A DNA stretch of 64,000 nucleotides. Source: an uncultured Nitrososphaerota archaeon (GTDB taxonomy: Archaea > Thermoproteota > Nitrososphaeria > Nitrososphaerales > Gagatemarchaeaceae). Position 1 is the first letter of the stretch. Each line of letters begins with the position of its first letter. A model generated the notes under the pieces. The model saw nothing but the letters and a program-made list of their open reading frames with translations. It ran no database searches and was not told the origin of the DNA. The stretch covers positions 480,001-544,000 of the forward strand of contig CAWISW010000002.1 of NCBI GenBank assembly GCA_963838925.1, given 5' to 3'. Position numbers and translations under genes: made by a program. Shown here piece by piece: positions 26,571-40,187 of the stretch.

Positions 26571-29012
26571 CTAGCTCCGAGCCCGTCGGCGACCGCGAGC
26601 CACCAAGACGGCAGCGCCCGCGACGACGACCACCCCGACGGCGGCCAAGGTGTAGGCGACCTCCGGCGACAGCCCTCCCACCCCGCTCGACGTCGACGAG
26701 GTCGGCCCGCCAGTCGTCTCTATCCCGATCGAGATCACCTCGCCTGGGATTACCTCCGCGTGCCCCAGCGGCCCGTGGAGACCCTTCTCGCCAAGGACGG
26801 GGTGGTTGCTCCCGCCGTAGGTGAGCAGGATGTGCATCACCCCGTTCGCGTCAGGAGCCATGCTCATGGGGGCGAGAAGGGGCACCCCCAGGTCGATGGT
26901 GCGGAGGACCTTCCCCGTGTCCGAGGACTGGAAGACGAGCTCTCCGTCCGGCCACTGGGATACGACCATCCCGCCCGTGACGATGATGCCTCCCCTGTAG
27001 TAGATCGGCCTGGTGTAGCTCCAGAGGACGCTGCCGTTCACGGGGTCTATCTTCAGGATGGTGGCGTTGGTCTGCATCTGGCCAGAGAAGTAGAGGTTCG
27101 TCCCGAAGACTATCCCCGAGGAGCCCTTGTAGTCGACGTCCCCGATGTAGTCTCGCTCCATCGGCCCGTCCATGACGACCACGTAGAAGTATCTACCGTC
27201 GAACGCGTTCTCGGACTCCATCATGTAGGGCGCCTCGATGAACCCCGCCTTCCCGGTCGCGCCTATCGCAGGGCAGACCGTGGTGTTGGCTATCGCGGTG
27301 CACGACTGGACCCTCCCGACCCCCGCCAGGGCCTCGCACTCCGCGTTCGTCCCCACCGGGCAGTCGAACTGGGTCATCTCGGTGAGGTTCAGCGGGTCGA
27401 GCCCCTCGCTCGCCCTGTATGGGGCCCCCGTGACGTAGCCGTGCGGCCTGGGTATCTGGCCCGCGGCGTACTCCGACCAGAGCCTGTCCCACGCGGCGCC
27501 GAAGTCGCAGCTCTCGACGTTGGACGGCACGCACTCGAACGGCGCCGACGCGCTCGAAGAGGGGTCGCTGTAGTCGGGCATGGTGGTGTCCAGGATCCAC
27601 TTCGGTTGGCCGGTGATGGCGTCCATGCCGTAGACGACACCGCTCTTGCAAGCCTTCAGGACCATCTTCTCCCCTTCAACGGTCGCGAATATCGTGTTCA
27701 GGTTGCAGTCCTCGTCGTTCAGGTCTCGCGCGATGCTCTTGTCCGCCCAGACTATCTTGCCGTCGGTCAGGTTCAGGCCGACGATCGAGTTCGCGAGGAG
27801 GTTGGGGCCTGGACGCAGCGACCCGTTCCAGTCCGGGCCCGGCTCAGAGGTGCCGAGGAAGGCCATCCCGTCCTGGTCGTCGAGCGCATACTGCCCCCAC
27901 GAGTTGCTCATGCCCGTGCTGGGGGCGATGTCGGTGCCGTTCCAGCGGCTCGAAAGGGCCGGGTCCTGCCAGTCGTCCTGTACTATGCTCGCAGGAAGCG
28001 CCGCGCACGGCACCCCGGCCACCCAGACGCTGGCGGTCTGGCAGAGGTCGACGGACCAGTTCCGCTCGCTGCCGTCGATGGGGGGCATGAAGAAGGTCCG
28101 CCACAGCAGGGTGCTGCCCGCCGAGCACGCGCCCCCCTGCTCTGTGGTGCACGCCCCCCCTTGGGCAGCGCAGCCGTCGCCGCTCACGATGTTGGCCGGG
28201 TCGAGGGCCGCTGAAAGGCTGCACCCCTCGACGAAGAACCTCCCGCCGCCCGTGCCCTCCGCGGAACCTCCCACGTAGTAGAGGATCTCGTTGTACTTCA
28301 CGTCGACCTGGATCGCGCTGTCCCCGAAGGAGTAGTACTGCCCCCACCCGCCGTACGGGCTCAGGTCTCCCGGTATGTCGTTGCAGAGCCCCGTCAAGTT
28401 GGCGCGGAGCACGCCGGTCGAGGCGTCCCACCCCTGGAGCTGGCACCCGAAGCCGTTCACCCAGATCACGCCGTCCACCAGGTTCGCGCTGTGGAGGTGG
28501 CCGGGGGGCCCGGAGGGAGCCCAGGGAAGCTTCTGGTAGGAAGCCCAGTCCATCGCGGCCTGACCAGGGAGGGACGGCATGACCTCGGCGCCTGTGGCGA
28601 GGTTGAACGCGAACACGCTCAGCCCGTTCGTTACCACGAAGCCGGTGCCATCCGCGGAGAGCACCGGGGCCATCGTGCCCTCGAGGCTGGTGGAGTACGG
28701 CAGGCCAGGGAAGCGGCTCTGCAGCGAGGGGGTGACGGACATGACGCTGGGGATGGGGAATATGTACTGCACGCCCAGGCTGCCCACGGAGGCCGCGTTG
28801 ATCTGAGTCTGGGGCGAGTAGTCCCACCCTTGCTCGCCCGTGGAGCCTGGTCCTGTGTACTCCGTCCAATCGAGCGAGGAGTAGTTGGAGCCCGTCGTGC
28901 TCGTGGCGGCTGAGAGGGGCTCCACGGCGGCGACGATGGGGGGCAATCCTGACGCTGAGGCAGGAGAGGCGTGCATCAAAGCGGTGGAGGCCAATAGGAG
29001 CCAAACGAGCAC
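26571..29012 (-). CDS. Secreted, C-terminally anchored PQQ-dependent dehydrogenase-like beta-propeller
   Basis: Signal peptide; YSPQTQIN, RPGPNL.ANSIVGLN.TDGK.VW, DLNDED and repeated A.D..TG..LW motifs; C-terminal TM followed by RRRARS. Confidence 0.75.
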   Translation of the reverse strand: MLVWLLLASTALMHASPASASGLPPIVAAVEPLSAATSTTGSNYSSLDWTEYTGPGSTGEQGWDYSPQTQINAASVGSLGVQYIFPIPSVMSVTPSLQSRFPGLPYSTSLEGTMAPVLSADGTGFVVTNGLSVFAFNLATGAEVMPSLPGQAAMDWASYQKLPWAPSGPPGHLHSANLVDGVIWVNGFGCQLQGWDASTGVLRANLTGLCNDIPGDLSPYGGWGQYYSFGDSAIQVDVKYNEILYYVGGSAEGTGGGRFFVEGCSLSAALDPANIVSGDGCAAQGGACTTEQGGACSAGSTLLWRTFFMPPIDGSERNWSVDLCQTASVWVAGVPCAALPASIVQDDWQDPALSSRWNGTDIAPSTGMSNSWGQYALDDQDGMAFLGTSEPGPDWNGSLRPGPNLLANSIVGLNLTDGKIVWADKSIARDLNDEDCNLNTIFATVEGEKMVLKACKSGVVYGMDAITGQPKWILDTTMPDYSDPSSSASAPFECVPSNVESCDFGAAWDRLWSEYAAGQIPRPHGYVTGAPYRASEGLDPLNLTEMTQFDCPVGTNAECEALAGVGRVQSCTAIANTTVCPAIGATGKAGFIEAPYMMESENAFDGRYFYVVVMDGPMERDYIGDVDYKGSSGIVFGTNLYFSGQMQTNATILKIDPVNGSVLWSYTRPIYYRGGIIVTGGMVVSQWPDGELVFQSSDTGKVLRTIDLGVPLLAPMSMAPDANGVMHILLTYGGSNHPVLGEKGLHGPLGHAEVIPGEVISIGIETTGGPTSSTSSGVGGLSPEVAYTLAAVGVVVVAGAAVLVARGRRRARS

Positions 29013-29146
29013 CGAGGGGGTGCCAAACGACCGAAGGCTAGGAGAGTTCGTTTCTTCCCCTGACCGTTCTCGCCCGCCCTCGGCTTAAGAACCTGTCTTG
29101 ACCGTGGAACGGCTCTCCAAGGGGGTTGCGATAGACCCCTTTTTCG

Positions 29147-29194
29147 GGTTCTGTTCAATCAACGGCTCTCGTTCTCCGTGTTAAGTCTCGGCTC
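29147..29194 (+). repeat. Terminal inverted repeat at the transposase 3' end
   Basis: 39 of 48 positions match the reverse complement of 31082-31129; the outer 12 bp are perfect. Confidence 0.9.
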
Positions 29195-30310
29195 TTTTGC
29201 CGCGTTCTGGATGATGGTAAGCCACTTGTTCTCGCCTTCGACCGTTATCCCGCAAGCCTCGGCGGGAGTCTTTCCCTCAAGGCCCTCGTGCGGTCTGATG
29301 AAGTTGTGGAAGATTTGATACCCCTTCAAGGCGGGAGAGTCCACATTCTTCAGGCCCCTCATCACCTTCTCTCGGTCTCGGAACTCTCCGTTTAGCCTCT
29401 CCATCTTGTTGTTGTTTCGGTCTCCCTTTAGCGTGATGTGCCGGATGTGCTGAGTCCTCGGATACTTCTGAGTCCAGAACTCTTTCGTGTATGCGTCTTG
29501 GTAATTCTTCGCGCCATCGGTGATGAAGGTCAGAGGCTTCTTTCCGGCGACCTCCTTGCTGACGCTCAGTAGCCTCCGAGCGTCGTGGATGTATTTGGTG
29601 TCCGCGACCTCTTGGGCTATCCAGAAGCGGGTCTCGTCGTCCATCATCGCGTAGAGATACTTCATGTTGCCCTTCACCTTCAAGTAGAGTTCGTCGGCCC
29701 GCCATGTGTCGGAGACGTTGGGTGTGAACTCGCTAAGATACCTCTCCATGAGCTTGACATACTTGCCTATCCAATTGTAGACCGTCACATGGGAAACCGT
29801 CACGCCTTGGAGTAGAAGGAACTTCTGGACGTTCCGAAGGCTCTCACCCGTGAAGTAGAGTTGCATCGCGGAGGTTATCGCTTGCGGGGAGGCCGCCATG
29901 CGCTCGAAGCCGAGATTCTTGACGAACCATTTGCCGCACTGATTGCACTCGTATCTCTGGATGGTGGAGTTCTTGTTCTTCCGGACTCCGTGCTTGATGA
30001 TGTCCTCTGAGCCGCACTCAAGGCAACTCTGGAAGTCCAGAGGCACGACCCGCTTCGAGTTCTCTATCCGTCGCCTAAGCTCTAACGAGAGTTCGACCGC
30101 GAAGATGTGCTTGCACTTGATTACGCGAGTGAGCGCGTCAGGGCAAGAGCAGAACCAACCCGACTCAGTTGAGACGACTTGGTATTCGCCGTTGCCCGAT
30201 TGGCTCTTGACTCTGTATTCGGTCGCGTCGAGCCTTCGGACGTTGCTCTCCACCTCTGCGATTGCTTGGCCTCTCACTTTTCGCGCCTCAAGTTCTTGGA
30301 AGGTAGCCAT
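29159..30310 (-). CDS. IS6-family DDE transposase with N-terminal SWIM finger and zinc ribbon
   Basis: CSCPD...CKH (SWIM), CLEC..CNQC, WRADELY, ITDG, NNKMERLN and HNFIRPH. Confidence 0.92.
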   Translation of the reverse strand: MATFQELEARKVRGQAIAEVESNVRRLDATEYRVKSQSGNGEYQVVSTESGWFCSCPDALTRVIKCKHIFAVELSLELRRRIENSKRVVPLDFQSCLECGSEDIIKHGVRKNKNSTIQRYECNQCGKWFVKNLGFERMAASPQAITSAMQLYFTGESLRNVQKFLLLQGVTVSHVTVYNWIGKYVKLMERYLSEFTPNVSDTWRADELYLKVKGNMKYLYAMMDDETRFWIAQEVADTKYIHDARRLLSVSKEVAGKKPLTFITDGAKNYQDAYTKEFWTQKYPRTQHIRHITLKGDRNNNKMERLNGEFRDREKVMRGLKNVDSPALKGYQIFHNFIRPHEGLEGKTPAEACGITVEGENKWLTIIQNAAKEPRLNTENESR

Positions 30311-30371
30311 CTATCTTTCGCTATCAATAGGTAGCAATCAATAGTCTTATAAAGATATCTAACGCTACCTA

Positions 30372-30515
30372 ATGATGGACATGCAGAAACGCTACATGCT
30401 GACCATGACCGAAGAGATGGAAAAGAAGCTAGAGGTGGAGCGAAAGAAGAGGCTCTTAGATTCGATACCGGAGACCGTGCGAATGATATTGAGCGAGTAT
30501 CTATCAAAGGGTTAG
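30372..30515 (+). CDS. Small ribbon-helix-helix (CopG-like) DNA-binding protein, not in the ORF track
   Basis: MMDMQKRYMLTMTEEMEKKLEVERKKRLLDSIPETVRMILSEYLSKG: alternating strand then two helices; divergent from the transposase. Confidence 0.7.
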   Translation: MMDMQKRYMLTMTEEMEKKLEVERKKRLLDSIPETVRMILSEYLSKG

Positions 30516-30526
30516 ACCCGAGCCGA

Positions 30527-30946
30527 TTGCCCTTGACGAAAAGAAGAGCAGAAACCAGCACCTTTTGGGGTTTAGCGGTTCCGTTGATTGGGTTGGTTCT
30601 GCTCGGAGTATACTTCCCGAGCGTGTGGGGATTTTCCTTCTCTTTCCTTGTCTCATTCGCCGTCGCCGATGTAATCATGTATTACTCTCTGGAGAAAGGA
30701 ACGGGGGCAAAATGGGCGCATGGCGCACGTTCAGAAATCCGCATTTGGATTGTCTTGTTTGTAATAGTGGTGGCTTCTCTCGCAGGGGCGAAGATAGGAG
30801 AGTTTGTAACCGGTCTCAATGCTGTTCAGAACTATTGGTTGATTGTCGGTGAGGCATTCCTGACGGTCGTGACTCTCTATGTCTACCTTGCTTGGAGATA
30901 TAACGACTCATCCCCATCAGAGAACCAAATACCGCAACAATCGTAA
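30527..30946 (+). CDS. IS passenger: hypothetical membrane protein (about 4 TM)
   Basis: Four hydrophobic segments; starts 11 nt after the RHH stop. Confidence 0.65.
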   Translation: MPLTKRRAETSTFWGLAVPLIGLVLLGVYFPSVWGFSFSFLVSFAVADVIMYYSLEKGTGAKWAHGARSEIRIWIVLFVIVVASLAGAKIGEFVTGLNAVQNYWLIVGEAFLTVVTLYVYLAWRYNDSSPSENQIPQQS

Positions 30947-31067
30947 GCTCGAAGTTCAGGTTCAGGGCCTTCGCAATAAGGAGAAATGCAATCTCGCCGA
31001 GTCCGACCTTCGCCATGCGAAGGTATTCTCTGACCTCCTCTTCGGTCATCCCCCCTTGCCTCACCAT
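30816..31067 (-). CDS. IS passenger: possible small membrane protein
   Basis: Two short hydrophobic stretches and GGTGAGG upstream of the second ATG; overlaps the 3' end of the convergent gene. Confidence 0.35.
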   Translation of the reverse strand: MVRQGGMTEEEVREYLRMAKVGLGEIAFLLIAKALNLNFELTIVAVFGSLMGMSRYISKQGRHRESRPSGMPHRQSTNSSEQH

Positions 31068-31081
31068 TTCAGCGTTCCCGC

Positions 31082-31129
31082 GAGCCGAGGCTTAACAGTC
31101 AGAACGCGAGCCGCCCGTTGAACAGAACC
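31082..31129 (-). repeat. Terminal inverted repeat at the passenger end
   Basis: Reverse complement reads GGTTCTGTTCAAcgggCGGCTCgCGTTCTgacTGTTAAGcCTCGGCTC, matching the other end. Confidence 0.9.
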
Positions 31130-31173
31130 CTTTTTCGCAAAGCGTAAATAGCGCCGACCGGAGGAACATCACA

Positions 31174-31455
31174 ATGGACCCGCTTGAGCTTGTCATCATA
31201 GGCATAATCATAGTGGTCGTAGTGGTAATGGGGCCCAAGAGGATCCCGGAGCTGGCAAGGGCCTTGGGATCCGCCAAGAAGGAGTTCAACGCGGGCGCCC
31301 AGGCGACTCCAGCGGCCGGCACGAGCGCATCCGTGGGCTCTCCGATGGGGGGAGACGACCTGATGGTGGCCGCTCAGAGGCTCGGCATCTCGACGGAAGG
31401 CAAGACCAGGGAGCAGATATCTGCCGAGATCGTCCGCAAGACCGCGGGCGCCTAG
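31174..31455 (+). CDS. tatA: Twin-arginine translocase TatA
   Basis: TM + GPKRIPELARALG.AKKEF; C-terminal A..LGI.TEGKTREQI domain. Confidence 0.92.
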   Translation: MDPLELVIIGIIIVVVVVMGPKRIPELARALGSAKKEFNAGAQATPAAGTSASVGSPMGGDDLMVAAQRLGISTEGKTREQISAEIVRKTAGA

Positions 31456-31646: not shown

Positions 31647-32504
31647 CTGAGCTCAGAGTCCCTCAACATAATGGAGCACCTCGACGAGCTGAAGCACAGG
31701 ATGAAGGTGGCCTTCCTGAGCTACGTGGTGATCCTCGCGATCTTCCTCCTGGCCCCGGCAAACCCCGCGAAGGCGATAACCTTCACGGGCACCTACGAGC
31801 CGTTCGTCGCATTCTTCCTCGCGAGGGTGAAGCTGGACCTGCTTCCGGCGGGCTGGACGCTGATCGCCGGCCCCCTGACGGCGCCCCTCGAGGTCTACCT
31901 CGTGGCGTCGGTGGTCCTCGCGGCCGTCTTCAACAGCCCCATATTCGCGTACGAGGTGATGAGGTTCATCACCCCCGCGCTGACGGACAGGGAGAAGGGG
32001 CTCCTCTACCCCTTCGTCACCGCGTCGACCGCGCTCTTCGTGGTCGGGGTGCTGTTCGGCTACTTCCTCCTGGCGAAGTTCCTCTTCATCGCCCTGGAGC
32101 CGTTCTACCAGACCGCTCAGGCGCAGCCCCTGATCAACGTCACGGACTTCTACTCCATCGTCTTCCTCACTGTGGGGATGAGCGGGTTCGCCTTCACGAC
32201 CCCCGTCTACGTCTTCATCCTGATACGCTTCAGGATCCTGAGCCCGCAGACCTTCCGCCACAACAGGGTGATCATCTGGGTTGTAGTCTACATCGCCACA
32301 GCAATCATAACGCCCGACGGCGGGCCCATCCTCGACATCATCCTCTTCGTCCCCATAATCGTGATGCTCGAGCTCGCCGTGTGGCTGGGGGCGCGCTCGA
32401 TCAGGAACCTCGATACCGCTCCCCCCGAGCCCAAGTGCAAGTACTGCGGGACGAAGCTGGGCGGGGCGACCTTCTGCCCGAGCTGCGGACGTGCCGCGGC
32501 TTGA
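31647..32504 (+). CDS. tatC: Twin-arginine translocase TatC with C-terminal zinc ribbon
   Basis: EHLDELK.R, FITPALT..E and ITPDG; tail CKYC..CPSCG. Start is CTG 31647 (SD GGTG) or ATG 31671. Confidence 0.9.
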   Translation: MSSESLNIMEHLDELKHRMKVAFLSYVVILAIFLLAPANPAKAITFTGTYEPFVAFFLARVKLDLLPAGWTLIAGPLTAPLEVYLVASVVLAAVFNSPIFAYEVMRFITPALTDREKGLLYPFVTASTALFVVGVLFGYFLLAKFLFIALEPFYQTAQAQPLINVTDFYSIVFLTVGMSGFAFTTPVYVFILIRFRILSPQTFRHNRVIIWVVVYIATAIITPDGGPILDIILFVPIIVMLELAVWLGARSIRNLDTAPPEPKCKYCGTKLGGATFCPSCGRAAA

Positions 32505-38051: not shown

Positions 38052-40187
38052 ATGGTCAGCAGCGAACAGGTCCTCGAAGCGTTGCGACGAGTAAAGGACC
38101 CCGAGCTCCAGAGGGACGTCGTCTCGCTCGGCATGATAGAGGAGCTCAAGGTCGACGGGGGGGCCGTGTCGTTCACTCTCAACCTCACCACGCCCGCCTG
38201 CCCTCTGCGCGCGGAGCTGGAGGCGGACGTCAAGGCCGCCCTGAGGGCGCTGCCGGGCGTCAAGGACGTGAAGATGAAGACGAGCGCGCACATCCCGGCC
38301 ACTCGCCTCCCAGACCAGGGCGAGGTGATGAAGGGCGTGAAGAACGTCATCGCGGTCGCCAGCGGCAAGGGTGGGGTGGGGAAGACCACCGTCGCGGTCA
38401 ACCTGGCAGTGAGCTTGGCGGCGGCGGGGGCCAGGGTAGGGCTTCTCGACGCCGACATCTACGGGCCCACTGTCCCAGTGATGATGGGCGTGCGGGAGCG
38501 GCCTGGTGCGGTCGGGAACATGATGGTGCCTCCCGCCGCGCACGGGGTGAAGGTGATCTCCCTGGGGTTCTTCTACAAGGACGACACCCCCCTCGTCTGG
38601 CGGGGTCCGATGGTCGCCGGGGCGGTCAAGCAGCTCCTCACTCAGGTGGAGTGGGGCGACCTCGACTACCTCATCGTCGACCTGCCACCTGGGTGCATGC
38701 CTGCCGGCACGTTCGTAATGACCGCCAATAATGCTCCCAAACCTATTGAGAAAATCAAAGTCGGCGACTTCGTCTTCAGCTATGATGGCAACAAACTCGT
38801 CCCGAGACGGGTTCTTGGTGTAGTCCCTCAAGGCAAACAGAAAGTGTTCAAGGTCAAAACACCGAACAGGACTGTGATTGCGAGCGCAAATCATCCCTTT
38901 CTGAAGTATCACCCCAGAGGCAGGCACTATTGGCGTCGGTTGGACCAGCTGAAAACCGGAGACAGAATCATGGTGACGAATTGCATAAGGGGGGGCGTGC
39001 CTCTCAGGCTGCCAGCTTTGGCACACAAGTCAGAGCGCATCTCAATTCCAAGCGTCACGACAAGCGATTTCATGCGAGTGGCGGGCCATTTTCTGGGAGA
39101 CGGATTCGTCAAGAAAGTCAAAGCTCGTAAGAGTCCCGCCGAGCTGAGGATTCGTGAGCCGAAAGGCAGCAAATTCCATGCAAAATACGACTCGCTCTAC
39201 AAGAAGATCTTCGGAGTCAAGACATTCCTCGATAACGACGGACAAAAACTTGCAATATCCTCCGGTGCTATGGCGGAACTCTTCATCGCCTTGGACTTGG
39301 CCCACAGCGCGAGGACGAAGGATGTTCCCGATTGGGTATTCTCGCTGCCACTGGACCAAAGGGTGTCTTTCATTATGGGCTACGCAGAAGCCGATGCGCA
39401 TATCAGACATCGCGAAGGTCAGAAAATGCTGGACGACTCCACCGGGATGAGTAGGTTGGTCTCGATTGTACAAGACACGGTCTCAGTTGGAAGCACCAAT
39501 GAGAATCTGGTCAGACGTCTACACGAGCTTTGTCTGATGAGCGGCCTGCGAGCGAACAACGTCAGGTCGAGAGCAAGAAAGGGAAACCTGTTGAAGTCCG
39601 GACGGTTTATCGGTCCAAGCGTAGAATTTGGGTTTGAGTTTTCTCTTAAGCCTGACACCACCGAGTTCAAGATTGCGAGAATAACCGGAATCCACCCAGC
39701 CGGAGAGGTTGATACATACGACCTGCAGGTCGACGAACACCAAAACTTTGTGGCTAACAGCATCTTAGTCCACAACACCGGGGACGCCTCGCTCACACTT
39801 GCTCAGACCGTGCCGCTAGGAGGTGTCGTGATAGTCACGACCCCGCAGGAGGCCTCCCTCAACATCGCGACAAAGTCACTGGCGATGTTTAGGAAGCTCA
39901 ACGTCCCGATACTGGGGATCGTCGAGAACATGAGCTACTTCACTTGCCCGCGCTGCGGCGAGAAGACCTACATCTTCTCCGAGGGAGGCGGCAAGAGGGC
40001 GGCGAAGGCCCTCGACGCGCAGTTCCTGGGCGAGATACCGATCTACCCGCTGATCAGGGAGCAGTCCGACGCGGGGACGCCTGTGTCCGCGTCAGCGCCC
40101 GATTCGCCTGAGAGCGCCGCGTTCAAGGACATCGCCTTCAAGGTCGCGGGAATGGTCAGCATAGTCGCCTACGAGAACTCGCAGTAG
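38052..40187 (+). CDS. apbC: Mrp/ApbC (Nbp35) Fe-S cluster carrier ATPase with N-terminal DUF59 domain, intein-containing precursor
   Basis: DPEL..TTPACP, GKGGVGKT, DADIYGP, WRGPM, DLPPG[intein]TGD, TTPQ and ENMS..CPRC; spliced product 350 aa. Confidence 0.93.
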   Translation: MVSSEQVLEALRRVKDPELQRDVVSLGMIEELKVDGGAVSFTLNLTTPACPLRAELEADVKAALRALPGVKDVKMKTSAHIPATRLPDQGEVMKGVKNVIAVASGKGGVGKTTVAVNLAVSLAAAGARVGLLDADIYGPTVPVMMGVRERPGAVGNMMVPPAAHGVKVISLGFFYKDDTPLVWRGPMVAGAVKQLLTQVEWGDLDYLIVDLPPGCMPAGTFVMTANNAPKPIEKIKVGDFVFSYDGNKLVPRRVLGVVPQGKQKVFKVKTPNRTVIASANHPFLKYHPRGRHYWRRLDQLKTGDRIMVTNCIRGGVPLRLPALAHKSERISIPSVTTSDFMRVAGHFLGDGFVKKVKARKSPAELRIREPKGSKFHAKYDSLYKKIFGVKTFLDNDGQKLAISSGAMAELFIALDLAHSARTKDVPDWVFSLPLDQRVSFIMGYAEADAHIRHREGQKMLDDSTGMSRLVSIVQDTVSVGSTNENLVRRLHELCLMSGLRANNVRSRARKGNLLKSGRFIGPSVEFGFEFSLKPDTTEFKIARITGIHPAGEVDTYDLQVDEHQNFVANSILVHNTGDASLTLAQTVPLGGVVIVTTPQEASLNIATKSLAMFRKLNVPILGIVENMSYFTCPRCGEKTYIFSEGGGKRAAKALDAQFLGEIPIYPLIREQSDAGTPVSASAPDSPESAAFKDIAFKVAGMVSIVAYENSQ
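38694..39776 (+). mobile_element. Intein (361 aa) with LAGLIDADG-type endonuclease region
   Basis: Starts CMPAGT, block B ASANHPF, VAGHFLGDG and FIMGYAEADA motifs, ends YDLQV...NFVAN.ILVHN with Thr+1; more AT-rich than the exteins. Confidence 0.93.

Follow-up and report, generated by a model that had tools for sequence, protein, structure and literature searches.

A 64-kb stretch of the genome of an uncultured Nitrososphaerota archaeon (contig CAWISW010000002.1, positions 480,001 to 544,000; hereafter the window, with position 1 its first letter) contains a segment of 1,983 bp, at 29147-31129, that has the anatomy of a transposon carrying genes beyond its transposase. The segment lies in the archaeal chromosome between a gene for a PQQ-repeat beta-propeller protein (26571-29012, minus strand) and tatA (31174-31455, with tatC next). 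Within it are a gene for a 383-residue transposase of the type found in the insertion sequence (IS) family IS6, a divergent gene for a 47-residue protein of predicted ribbon-helix-helix (RHH) fold and, downstream of the latter, a gene for a membrane protein of 139 residues.

Boundaries and transposase of the element

The octamer CTTTTTCG at 29139-29146 directly abuts the start of the element at 29147, GGTTCTGTTCAA... (in a longer reading, GGTTCTGTTCAATCAACGGCTC...). The far end, ...GAGCCGCCCGTTGAACAGAACC, is the reverse complement of this start; it stops at 31129 and is immediately adjoined by a second copy of the octamer, read from the sequence at 31130-31137 and letter-identical to the first. 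A repeat search returned the inverted arms 29146-29194 and 31082-31130, 49 nt long and 82% complementary, and because the outermost G/C pair of this match belongs to the duplicated octamer, we place the terminal inverted repeats at 29147-29194 (transposase end) and 31082-31129 (cargo end). Counted from the aligned ends, these two 48-nt repeats are identical at 39/48 positions, and the first of them covers the last 11 codons and the stop codon of the transposase gene. Both begin with GGTTCTG, that is, with the GG and the G at position 7 that mark IS6 ends, and the terminal 12-mer, allowing no mismatch, occurs in the window at the two element ends only.

Short repeats are common in this region, where 116 inverted pairs were listed in 2.7 kb, and on that count, with nothing further in its favor, one might suppose that repeats and duplication coincide by chance and that a transposase gene merely lies beside unrelated host genes. 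Against this, the 49-nt pair is by far the longest of those listed and has an exact 8-mer abutting both of its ends, the steps in G+C content (0.47-0.55 within the element, 0.62-0.70 in the flanks) coincide with the boundaries, and 53 of the 78 related loci described below repeat the arrangement, compared with none under a displaced control. We consider the probability of a chance arrangement to be negligible.

The PQQ-repeat gene and tatA diverge from a spacer of 170 bp, and it is here that the element has inserted, with 126 bp separating the insertion point from the start of the former gene and 36 bp from the ATG of the latter. The insertion probably spares the core promoters of both neighboring genes, and its consequence for the window is probably small. 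The G+C contrast, a drop of about 0.1-0.15, is consistent with a fairly recent arrival of the element. As a separate observation, the octamer produces a run of five T just beyond the cargo end (31129-31137), between the passenger gene and tatA. T runs can terminate transcription in archaea, and read-through from the element into tatA may thus be limited by this run outside the cargo end.

The transposase gene (29159-30310, minus strand) encodes a protein with a match to PF13610 (DDE_Tnp_IS240; E = 9.2e-17, 61.9 bits against a cut-off of 27), which places it in the IS6/IS240 type, whereas the NCBIfam model for ISC774 yields 12.6 bits only. The protein is modular. A SWIM-like module, CxCx9CxH (residues 54-68, nt 30107-30151, minus strand), occupies its first part; its second is a zinc ribbon with four Cys (residues 96-125, nt 29936-30025, minus strand), where an IS1/IS1595-type zinc-binding domain scores 28.6 bits over residues 96-130 (cut-off 28); a helical DNA-binding region then precedes the DDE core (residues ~201-339, nt 29294-29710, minus strand). 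We aligned the window protein with 19 relatives at 61-79% identity. The residues of the SWIM signature (C54, C56, C66 and H68) are invariant in all 20 sequences, as are those of the ribbon (C96, C99, C122 and C125) and the four catalytic-core positions D206, D265, E304 and R311. PF04434 (SWIM) is pre-assigned to many of the relatives, and in the AlphaFold model of the window transposase strands at 24-54 are followed by helices at 57-85, matching the expectation for a SWIM domain.

Such transposases are numerous: more than 5,738 relatives were found at E <= 0.001 among 8,000 candidates scored, mostly of 370-395 residues, the closest non-self match having 79% identity. Close relatives are named publicly just "DDE-type integrase/transposase/recombinase" or "putative transposase". 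The top annotated plasmid matches are clostridial ISCpe7-family transposases, with 28-29% identity over residues 92/93-363.

The small divergent gene and the passenger gene

The 47-residue protein is encoded at 30372-30515 on the plus strand, divergently from the transposase gene; an alternative ATG at 30381 would give 44 residues, as in relatives. Homologues of 44-55 residues are present in 16/78 related loci, and in 15 of these 16 they lie divergently upstream of the transposase gene. A profile built from 17 such sequences has its best matches in the Protein Data Bank to AvtR (E = 0.023) and MetJ (E = 0.033). The AlphaFold model (predicted local distance difference test, pLDDT, of 86) consists of two helices behind an extended N-terminus, and a Foldseek search with this model lists RHH proteins almost exclusively, including CopG, NikR, ParG, AmrZ, Arc and ORF56, with TMq values of 0.70-0.78. 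The match of the predicted structure to CopG/NikR/Arc-type folds supports the assignment of the protein to the RHH class at the fold level. Consistent with this, positional homologues in other subgroups match RHH_6, RHH_1 and CopG_antitoxin below the respective cut-offs.

The two divergent genes are separated by a 61-bp spacer (30311-30371) that contains a TATA-like TTTATAAG, with ATTAGGTAGC on one side of it and ATTGATTGC and ATTGATAGC on the other. The spacer also has an inverted pair, 30323-30335 and 30364-30376. Across the 64 kb, ATTRRTWGC is matched by ATTGATTGC and ATTGATAGC only. In RHH-type relatives the spacer has a like plan, with repeats flanking a TATA box, each relative having its own repeat sequence. 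Its anatomy suggests that the spacer serves as a bidirectional promoter in which the flanking repeats are candidate RHH operators, so that the element may regulate itself, as the sequence-only reading described below proposed. A scan for sigma-70 promoters and terminators, whose models are ill-suited to archaea, stayed at chance level.

The passenger gene (30527-30946, plus strand) starts with TTG 12 nt past the RHH stop codon and encodes 139 residues with four hydrophobic segments, predicted to be membrane helices. A search of 1.84 billion representative sequences returned as its sole relative an 85-residue fragment; a 136-residue cluster mate of this fragment has 69% identity over 134 residues of the passenger and reaches its C-terminus. 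The existence of this full-length relative establishes the passenger as a real, very rare gene. Families offered no further clue: the protein has no match in Pfam, NCBIfam, PADLOC or PHROGs, and its companions in a protein atlas are just unnamed clusters of small archaeal membrane proteins (score 0.90), which are uninformative. With this gene lying inside the repeats, the element qualifies as a transporter IS (tIS). An open reading frame (ORF) of 83 codons on the opposite strand (30816-31067) shares 131 nt with the passenger gene; a word-based protein search returned no candidate for it, and tblastn of the passenger and of this ORF against the 78 related loci gave nothing below E = 1. On account of its overlap and its lack of homologues we discount the antisense ORF, which is probably not a gene, leaving a single membrane gene.

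Much of this anatomy had been proposed in a reading made from the DNA letters and a list of ORFs (hereafter the sequence-only reading). Its exact boundaries with GG-ended inverted repeats and flanking duplication, its intact transposase with SWIM and zinc-ribbon extensions, its divergent RHH gene and its recent insertion into the divergent region between the PQQ-repeat gene and tatA all agree with the results above. Of the "one or two" membrane ORFs that it counted, the 139-residue one stands and the antisense one falls.

Related elements in archaea

To define the family, we used contigs from one genome per species, in which 607 of 630 pattern matches, among the matches listed, encode relatives of the transposase; the analysis below concerns the best 78 of these at least 607 loci. 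Nearly all 78 derive from metagenome-assembled genomes (MAGs) of Nitrososphaeria, Bathyarchaeia and Asgard archaea. Elements were delimited by pairs of termini, one to each side of the transposase gene, that are GG-ended, resemble GGTTCTG and agree at 15/24 positions or more, and 66/78 loci presented at least one such pair. With pairs ordered solely by how well their repeats agree, 49 of these 66 loci have an 8/8 duplication around the highest-ranking pair, compared with none for control octamers displaced 8 bp outward. With the octamer included in the ranking, 53/78 loci were delimited by GG-ended repeats and a perfect 8-bp duplication. Narrower searches, limited to 250 nt downstream or to a GGTTCTG no farther than 200 nt from the stop codon of the transposase gene, had found just 7-10 elements, because most relatives carry cargo downstream too.

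The 53 delimited elements measure 2,125-8,093 bp (median 3,580), with 364-3,772 bp preceding the transposase gene and as much as 3,567 bp following it; in 11 of them the transposase gene runs into the repeat, as in the window. None consists of the transposase gene alone, and 48/53 contain a non-transposase ORF of at least 100 codons. Two repeat-bounded segments (L053:2740-7340 and L025:335-5830) each contain two transposase genes of the family, in nested or tandem arrangement, and the element at L009 includes a gene for a DDE_Tnp_1 (IS4/IS5-type) transposase at L009:1476-2672. Five loci come from MAGs labelled as bacterial (L013, L017, L028, L061 and L076, with the labels Pirellulales, Limnocylindrales, Saccharibacteria, "bacterium" and Gammaproteobacteria), for which binning errors or cross-domain transfer are both possible explanations; L013, L017, L028 and L061 have perfect duplications.

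Comparison of close relatives separates a constant core from variable cargo. In all-against-all blastn, the window element and L016 have 1,309 of 1,983 nt in common, the common part outside the transposase gene amounting to 199 of 831 nt. Likewise, L062, L059, L057, L048, L053 and L051 share the transposase gene and ~200-300 nt of their ~1,150-1,550 non-transposase nt, with the nested double element of L053 as an exception. What is shared outside the transposase gene comprises the small gene, the spacer and the ends, and the remaining ~1 kb is unrelated. We compared 233 ORFs of at least 47 codons from the 53 elements, leaving out those of the transposase cluster and shorter ones, with Pfam. 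DNA methyltransferase or restriction genes occur in 12/53 elements. The cargo comprises N6_Mtase/HSDR_N fusion enzymes in eight elements, N4/N6 methylases in three, accompanied there by nucleases of Tsp45I, BsaWI or Mrr type, a D12 methylase in one and specificity subunits in three. Other cargo includes NOV_C, ParB_N, NYN, GNAT and Fic/DOC proteins and winged-helix regulators, and most ORFs have no family. An unusual passenger, resembling proteasome subunits (PF00227), appears in three unrelated elements (L009:2769-3578, L029:5356-6042 and L075:1804-2640).

These results confirm the expectation of the sequence-only reading that relatives of the transposase would be enclosed with a small regulator and further genes in GG-ended repeats, in elements larger than a transposase-only IS and with a variable cargo slot. 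That reading had also asked whether the RHH gene is constant while cargo varies; cargo does vary, and the RHH gene is constant in one subgroup only. Most loci have a small gene that diverges from the transposase gene and lies 90-150 bp upstream of it. Over 79 loci (the 78 relatives and the window), a hidden Markov model (HMM) of the window-type RHH protein matches in 15, and an HMM of AbrB/MazE-type proteins, which match PF04014, finds the regulator in 21; iterating both HMMs over small upstream ORFs brought no gain past these 15 and 21 loci. Regulators of the remaining 42 loci were assigned by eye. Many of them are RHH-like proteins of other kinds, a few with sub-threshold matches to RHH_6, RHH_1, 56B_RHH or DUF7557. 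Also present are several additional AbrB-like proteins, six zinc-ribbon proteins of CxxC...CxxC pattern and one or two that look winged-helix-like. As judged from these predicted proteins, the position of the regulator is conserved across the clade and its fold is not, the RHH form being constant within one subgroup. That the position is kept while the fold changes argues that a small DNA-binding protein belongs to the transposon's own equipment.

An alternative interpretation of the small gene is that it forms, with the membrane gene, a self-contained accessory module (for instance an antitoxin with a small membrane toxin, or a module for exclusion or addiction) that rides in the transposon, with the RHH protein playing no part in regulating transposition. 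RHH and AbrB/MazE are indeed classical DNA-binding folds of antitoxins, the AbrB-type proteins of the clade match the MazE_antitoxin family (PF04014), and in the window the RHH and membrane genes are co-directional and 12 nt apart. Furthermore, an ORF of at least 80 codons with two or more hydrophobic segments occurs in 8/13 delimited elements of the RHH subgroup and in 14/41 others, although the predictor is crude and this difference is not significant. On the other side, the neighbor of the RHH gene varies among RHH-bearing relatives while the RHH gene stays beside the transposase gene with a like-built spacer, and entire restriction-modification operons follow this slot in other elements. 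None of the 78 loci encodes a relative of the membrane protein. The toxin families PIN, RelE, MazF and HEPN are absent from the 233 ORFs, Fic/DOC appearing once, at the far end of L077, and PADLOC gave no match. In the window no member of a toxin family lies beside the small gene, as the pairing of a type II toxin-antitoxin system would demand. We therefore regard the module as improbable, and prefer to see the RHH protein as a regulator of the transposon and the membrane gene as its passenger.

The ends, too, have a family-wide structure. In the window, the transposase end contains an outer motif, TGTTCAA..CGGCTC (~29152-29168), and an inner one, TGTTAAG..CGGCTC (~29179-29194), and the cargo end has corresponding outer (~31108-31124) and inner (~31082-31097) motifs. 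The consensus of 108 ends from 54 elements (the window and the 53 delimited relatives) retains the GGTTCTG-type start and reads GGTTCTGTtAAgTcttCGgctgAT, and ~27 nt farther inward a second cTGTtAA...TCGG..AT occurs. Where the motif is variable, its outer and inner copies co-vary: this part reads CGGCTC in the window, L003 and L010, CGGCACAT in L004 and L022, CGGGAGAT in L001 and L007, and CGTCGGAT in L011, L013 and L014. Two motif copies per end make two candidate binding sites for the transposase at each end. The octamers of the 54 elements show a weak palindromic preference, Y-K-N4-M-R, with C/T at position 1 in 47/54, T/G at position 2 in 41/54, C/A at position 7 in 34/54 and G/A at position 8 in 39/54. 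Independently of these end motifs, we observed a perfect 15-nt inverted repeat inside the window element, between 30147-30161, where the transposase gene codes for the SWIM module, and 30590-30604 in the membrane gene. The latter arm includes the terminal heptamer GGTTCTG, and the repeat may be due to chance or may mark an internal transposase-binding site.

A further alternative is that the window element is an immobile relic, structurally complete yet no longer transposing in this genome. A self-blast revealed no second copy or fragment of the element in the window, and its repeats differ at 9/48 positions, as a relic's might. Its transposase frame is open, however, and keeps every residue that is invariant in the family; the duplication is perfect; mismatches between the left and right ends are common in the clade, even where the duplication is perfect; and the G+C content has not shifted towards that of the host. 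A relic thus appears unlikely, and the segment is a complete and probably functional transposon.

Relationship to known elements and proposed mechanism

Most IS6 members measure 0.7-0.9 kb (PMC7986276, PMC6807381), and the family generates duplications of 8 bp (PMC7986276). Judged by its sequence, the window element keeps the IS6 hallmarks (DDE type, GG....G ends and 8-bp duplication) and departs from the family in size, extra genes, the SWIM module and two-site ends; at 1,983 bp and with two further supported genes, it is not a compact, transposase-only IS6 element. The ends of IS26, IS257 and IS6100 likewise have GG with G at position 7 and 8-bp duplications (PMC6807381, PMC7986276), and the NNxxE of the window transposase with a basic residue seven positions on resembles the bacterial IS6 signature (PMC6807381). 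Unlike the window element, these three are single-gene elements of 0.79-0.88 kb with transposases of 220-250 residues and 14-bp repeats, and IS26-type cargo is described as moving only as a pseudo-compound transposon between two direct copies (PMC7986276), whereas the cargo of the window lies inside a single element. The archaeal IS6 entries of ISfinder (ISH14, ISC774 and ISPfu types) share with it an archaeal host and an IS6-assigned DDE core, but measure ~700-780 bp with transposases of 211-231 residues (PMC6807381), and the archaeal IS6 signature E--F---K-R (PMC6807381) does not fit the MERLNGEFRDREK of the window.

The closest likeness is found in the clostridial ISCpe7 group (clade h / VII) and the ISTet2 group (clade i / VIII), in which a Cys-rich zinc-finger extension also precedes the DDE_Tnp_IS240 core, with 8-bp duplications and inverted repeats that exceed the 14 bp found in IS26 (PMC7986276, PMC6807381); clade i / VIII has a further N-terminal extension of ~100 residues (PMC6807381). 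An N-terminal zinc-finger extension, which the sequence-only reading noted in the window, was already known from these clostridial clades, whose members reach 1,226-1,761 bp (PMC7986276, PMC6807381). In contrast to the window element, both groups are bacterial and encode the transposase only (PMC6807381), ISCpe7-type transposases have less than 30% identity to that of the window in a match that leaves the SWIM part uncovered, and the parts of the IS6 reviews available to us report no divergent regulator, cargo or two-site ends for them (PMC7986276, PMC6807381). ISDsp3 of Dehalococcoides is the one IS6 member recorded with a passenger gene in a 2021 review of the family (PMC7986276). It is a bacterial element of 1,456 bp that lacks an intact zinc finger and forms a branch of its own in the tree (PMC6807381), an isolated case compared with an archaeal clade that carries cargo in 53/53 delimited elements.

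Outside IS6, Tn7-like unit transposons resemble the archaeal clade in holding restriction-modification and other defence-type cargo inside their ends, and both Tn7 and Mu have several transposase-binding sites per end. Tn7-like elements are much larger, however, and use TnsABC-type machinery, unlike the single-protein, IS6-type transposase of the clade. Aloposons were also considered and rejected, given their integration at tRNA genes and the giant genes that they contain (PMC8813620). In the part of the supplement consulted for the paper on Atabeyarchaeia (PMC11529989), the source of the genomes of L008 and L027, matches to "IS6" are to IS605 only. A search of the published literature, with ISfinder and TnCentral entries outside its scope, found no description of this organisation.

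We propose the following mechanism. The mobile core would consist of the two 48-nt ends, each with an outer and an inner motif behind GGTTCTG, the modular DDE transposase and the divergent RHH protein. The transposase would bind the paired sites at both ends, nick the 3' ends next to GG and join them to a target cut with an 8-bp stagger, giving rise to the CTTTTTCG duplication. A dimer of the RHH protein would most likely bind the repeats that flank the shared TATA box of the 61-bp spacer, which would lower transcription both of the transposase gene and of the RHH protein's own operon, and the four-helix membrane gene downstream would be a passenger in a slot that is filled by quite different genes in relatives. 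The route could be either replicative, through a cointegrate, or simple insertion. The sequence-only reading had taken the flanking duplication as a hint of the latter, a hint that does not hold, because formation and resolution of a cointegrate also leave a single copy with an 8-bp duplication in the target (PMC7986276).

Taken together, these data make it likely that the segment is an autonomous, single-copy unit transposon of the transporter IS kind, belonging to a large archaeal clade distantly related to the long clostridial branch of IS6, in which the RHH protein would act as a repressor and the four-helix gene is a passenger. Several observations weigh against this interpretation. The window holds a single copy of the element, and neither an empty site, at which no search was aimed, nor a transposition intermediate came to light. 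The transposase falls just short of two models, with 124.8 bits on the NCBIfam IS6 model NF033587 (cut-off 125, 0.2 bits short) and 18.2 bits on Pfam SWIM (cut-off 19.6, 1.4 bits short); its full-length structural model is mediocre (pLDDT 69.6), and a fold search with that model was uninformative, the top match being the ISCth4 transposase (E = 9.5e-3, TM 0.18) and the rest scattered. The RHH protein of the window has no match of its own in Pfam or NCBIfam, DSSP assigns no N-terminal strand to its monomer model, and the E-values of its Foldseek matches are weak (0.14 and above), as a result of its shortness. The spacer repeats are short and weakly enriched over the whole window, with 16/100 shuffles reaching two ATTRRTWGC matches. 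Among the relatives, ORFs were called by a crude, greedy, longest-first procedure, and 25/78 loci are undelimited, some being cut by contig ends and some perhaps decayed; four of these (L006, L031, L040 and L047) have strong repeats but an off-register or imperfect duplication.

Beyond the single element, the results apparently reveal a large and undescribed archaeal family, every delimited member of which has extra genes. A 2019 survey of thaumarchaeal mobilomes describes IS-like transposons of one or two genes and, in the portion available, gives passenger-carrying transposons as undetected in archaea (PMC6563490), and the available portions of the IS6 reviews contain one passenger carrier and no member above 1.76 kb (PMC7986276, PMC6807381); the 53 delimited archaeal elements, all of them passenger-carrying, contrast with both. 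A far broader proposition, which we put forward as tentative and which may well prove wrong, is that these elements constitute a previously unrecognised and very abundant family of unit transposons in Nitrososphaeria, Bathyarchaeia and Asgard archaea, mechanistically unlike IS26, with two-site ends read by a SWIM/zinc-ribbon transposase, an obligatory small protein that binds DNA and whose fold (RHH, AbrB or zinc ribbon) can be exchanged, and a cargo slot that shuttles restriction-modification systems and membrane proteins. Should the cargo-carrying family as delimited here hold up, archaea of soil and sediment would possess a simple vehicle, driven by one protein, for the exchange of genes, those for defence among them. 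The elements would also offer a compact system in which to examine the effects of additional DNA-binding modules and of a resident repressor on DDE transposition.

The remainder of the window is that of an archaeal host, coding also for an ATP-dependent DNA ligase, a class-I-type ProRS, a non-discriminating AspRS, GatA/GatB, CofD and KaiC-like proteins; scans of the window revealed no Rfam families or tRNAs. Next to tatA, the TatC protein (31671-32504, plus strand) ends in a CxxC...CxxC tail at its C-terminus, and its residues 255-274 show weak similarity to zinc ribbons. Further downstream, at 38052-40187 (plus strand), a 711-residue iron-sulfur carrier ATPase of the Mrp/ApbC type is apparently interrupted by an intein, with matches resembling helicase and ribonucleotide reductase (RNR) inteins at residues 213-467 and an intein C-terminal splicing motif at residues 555-576.

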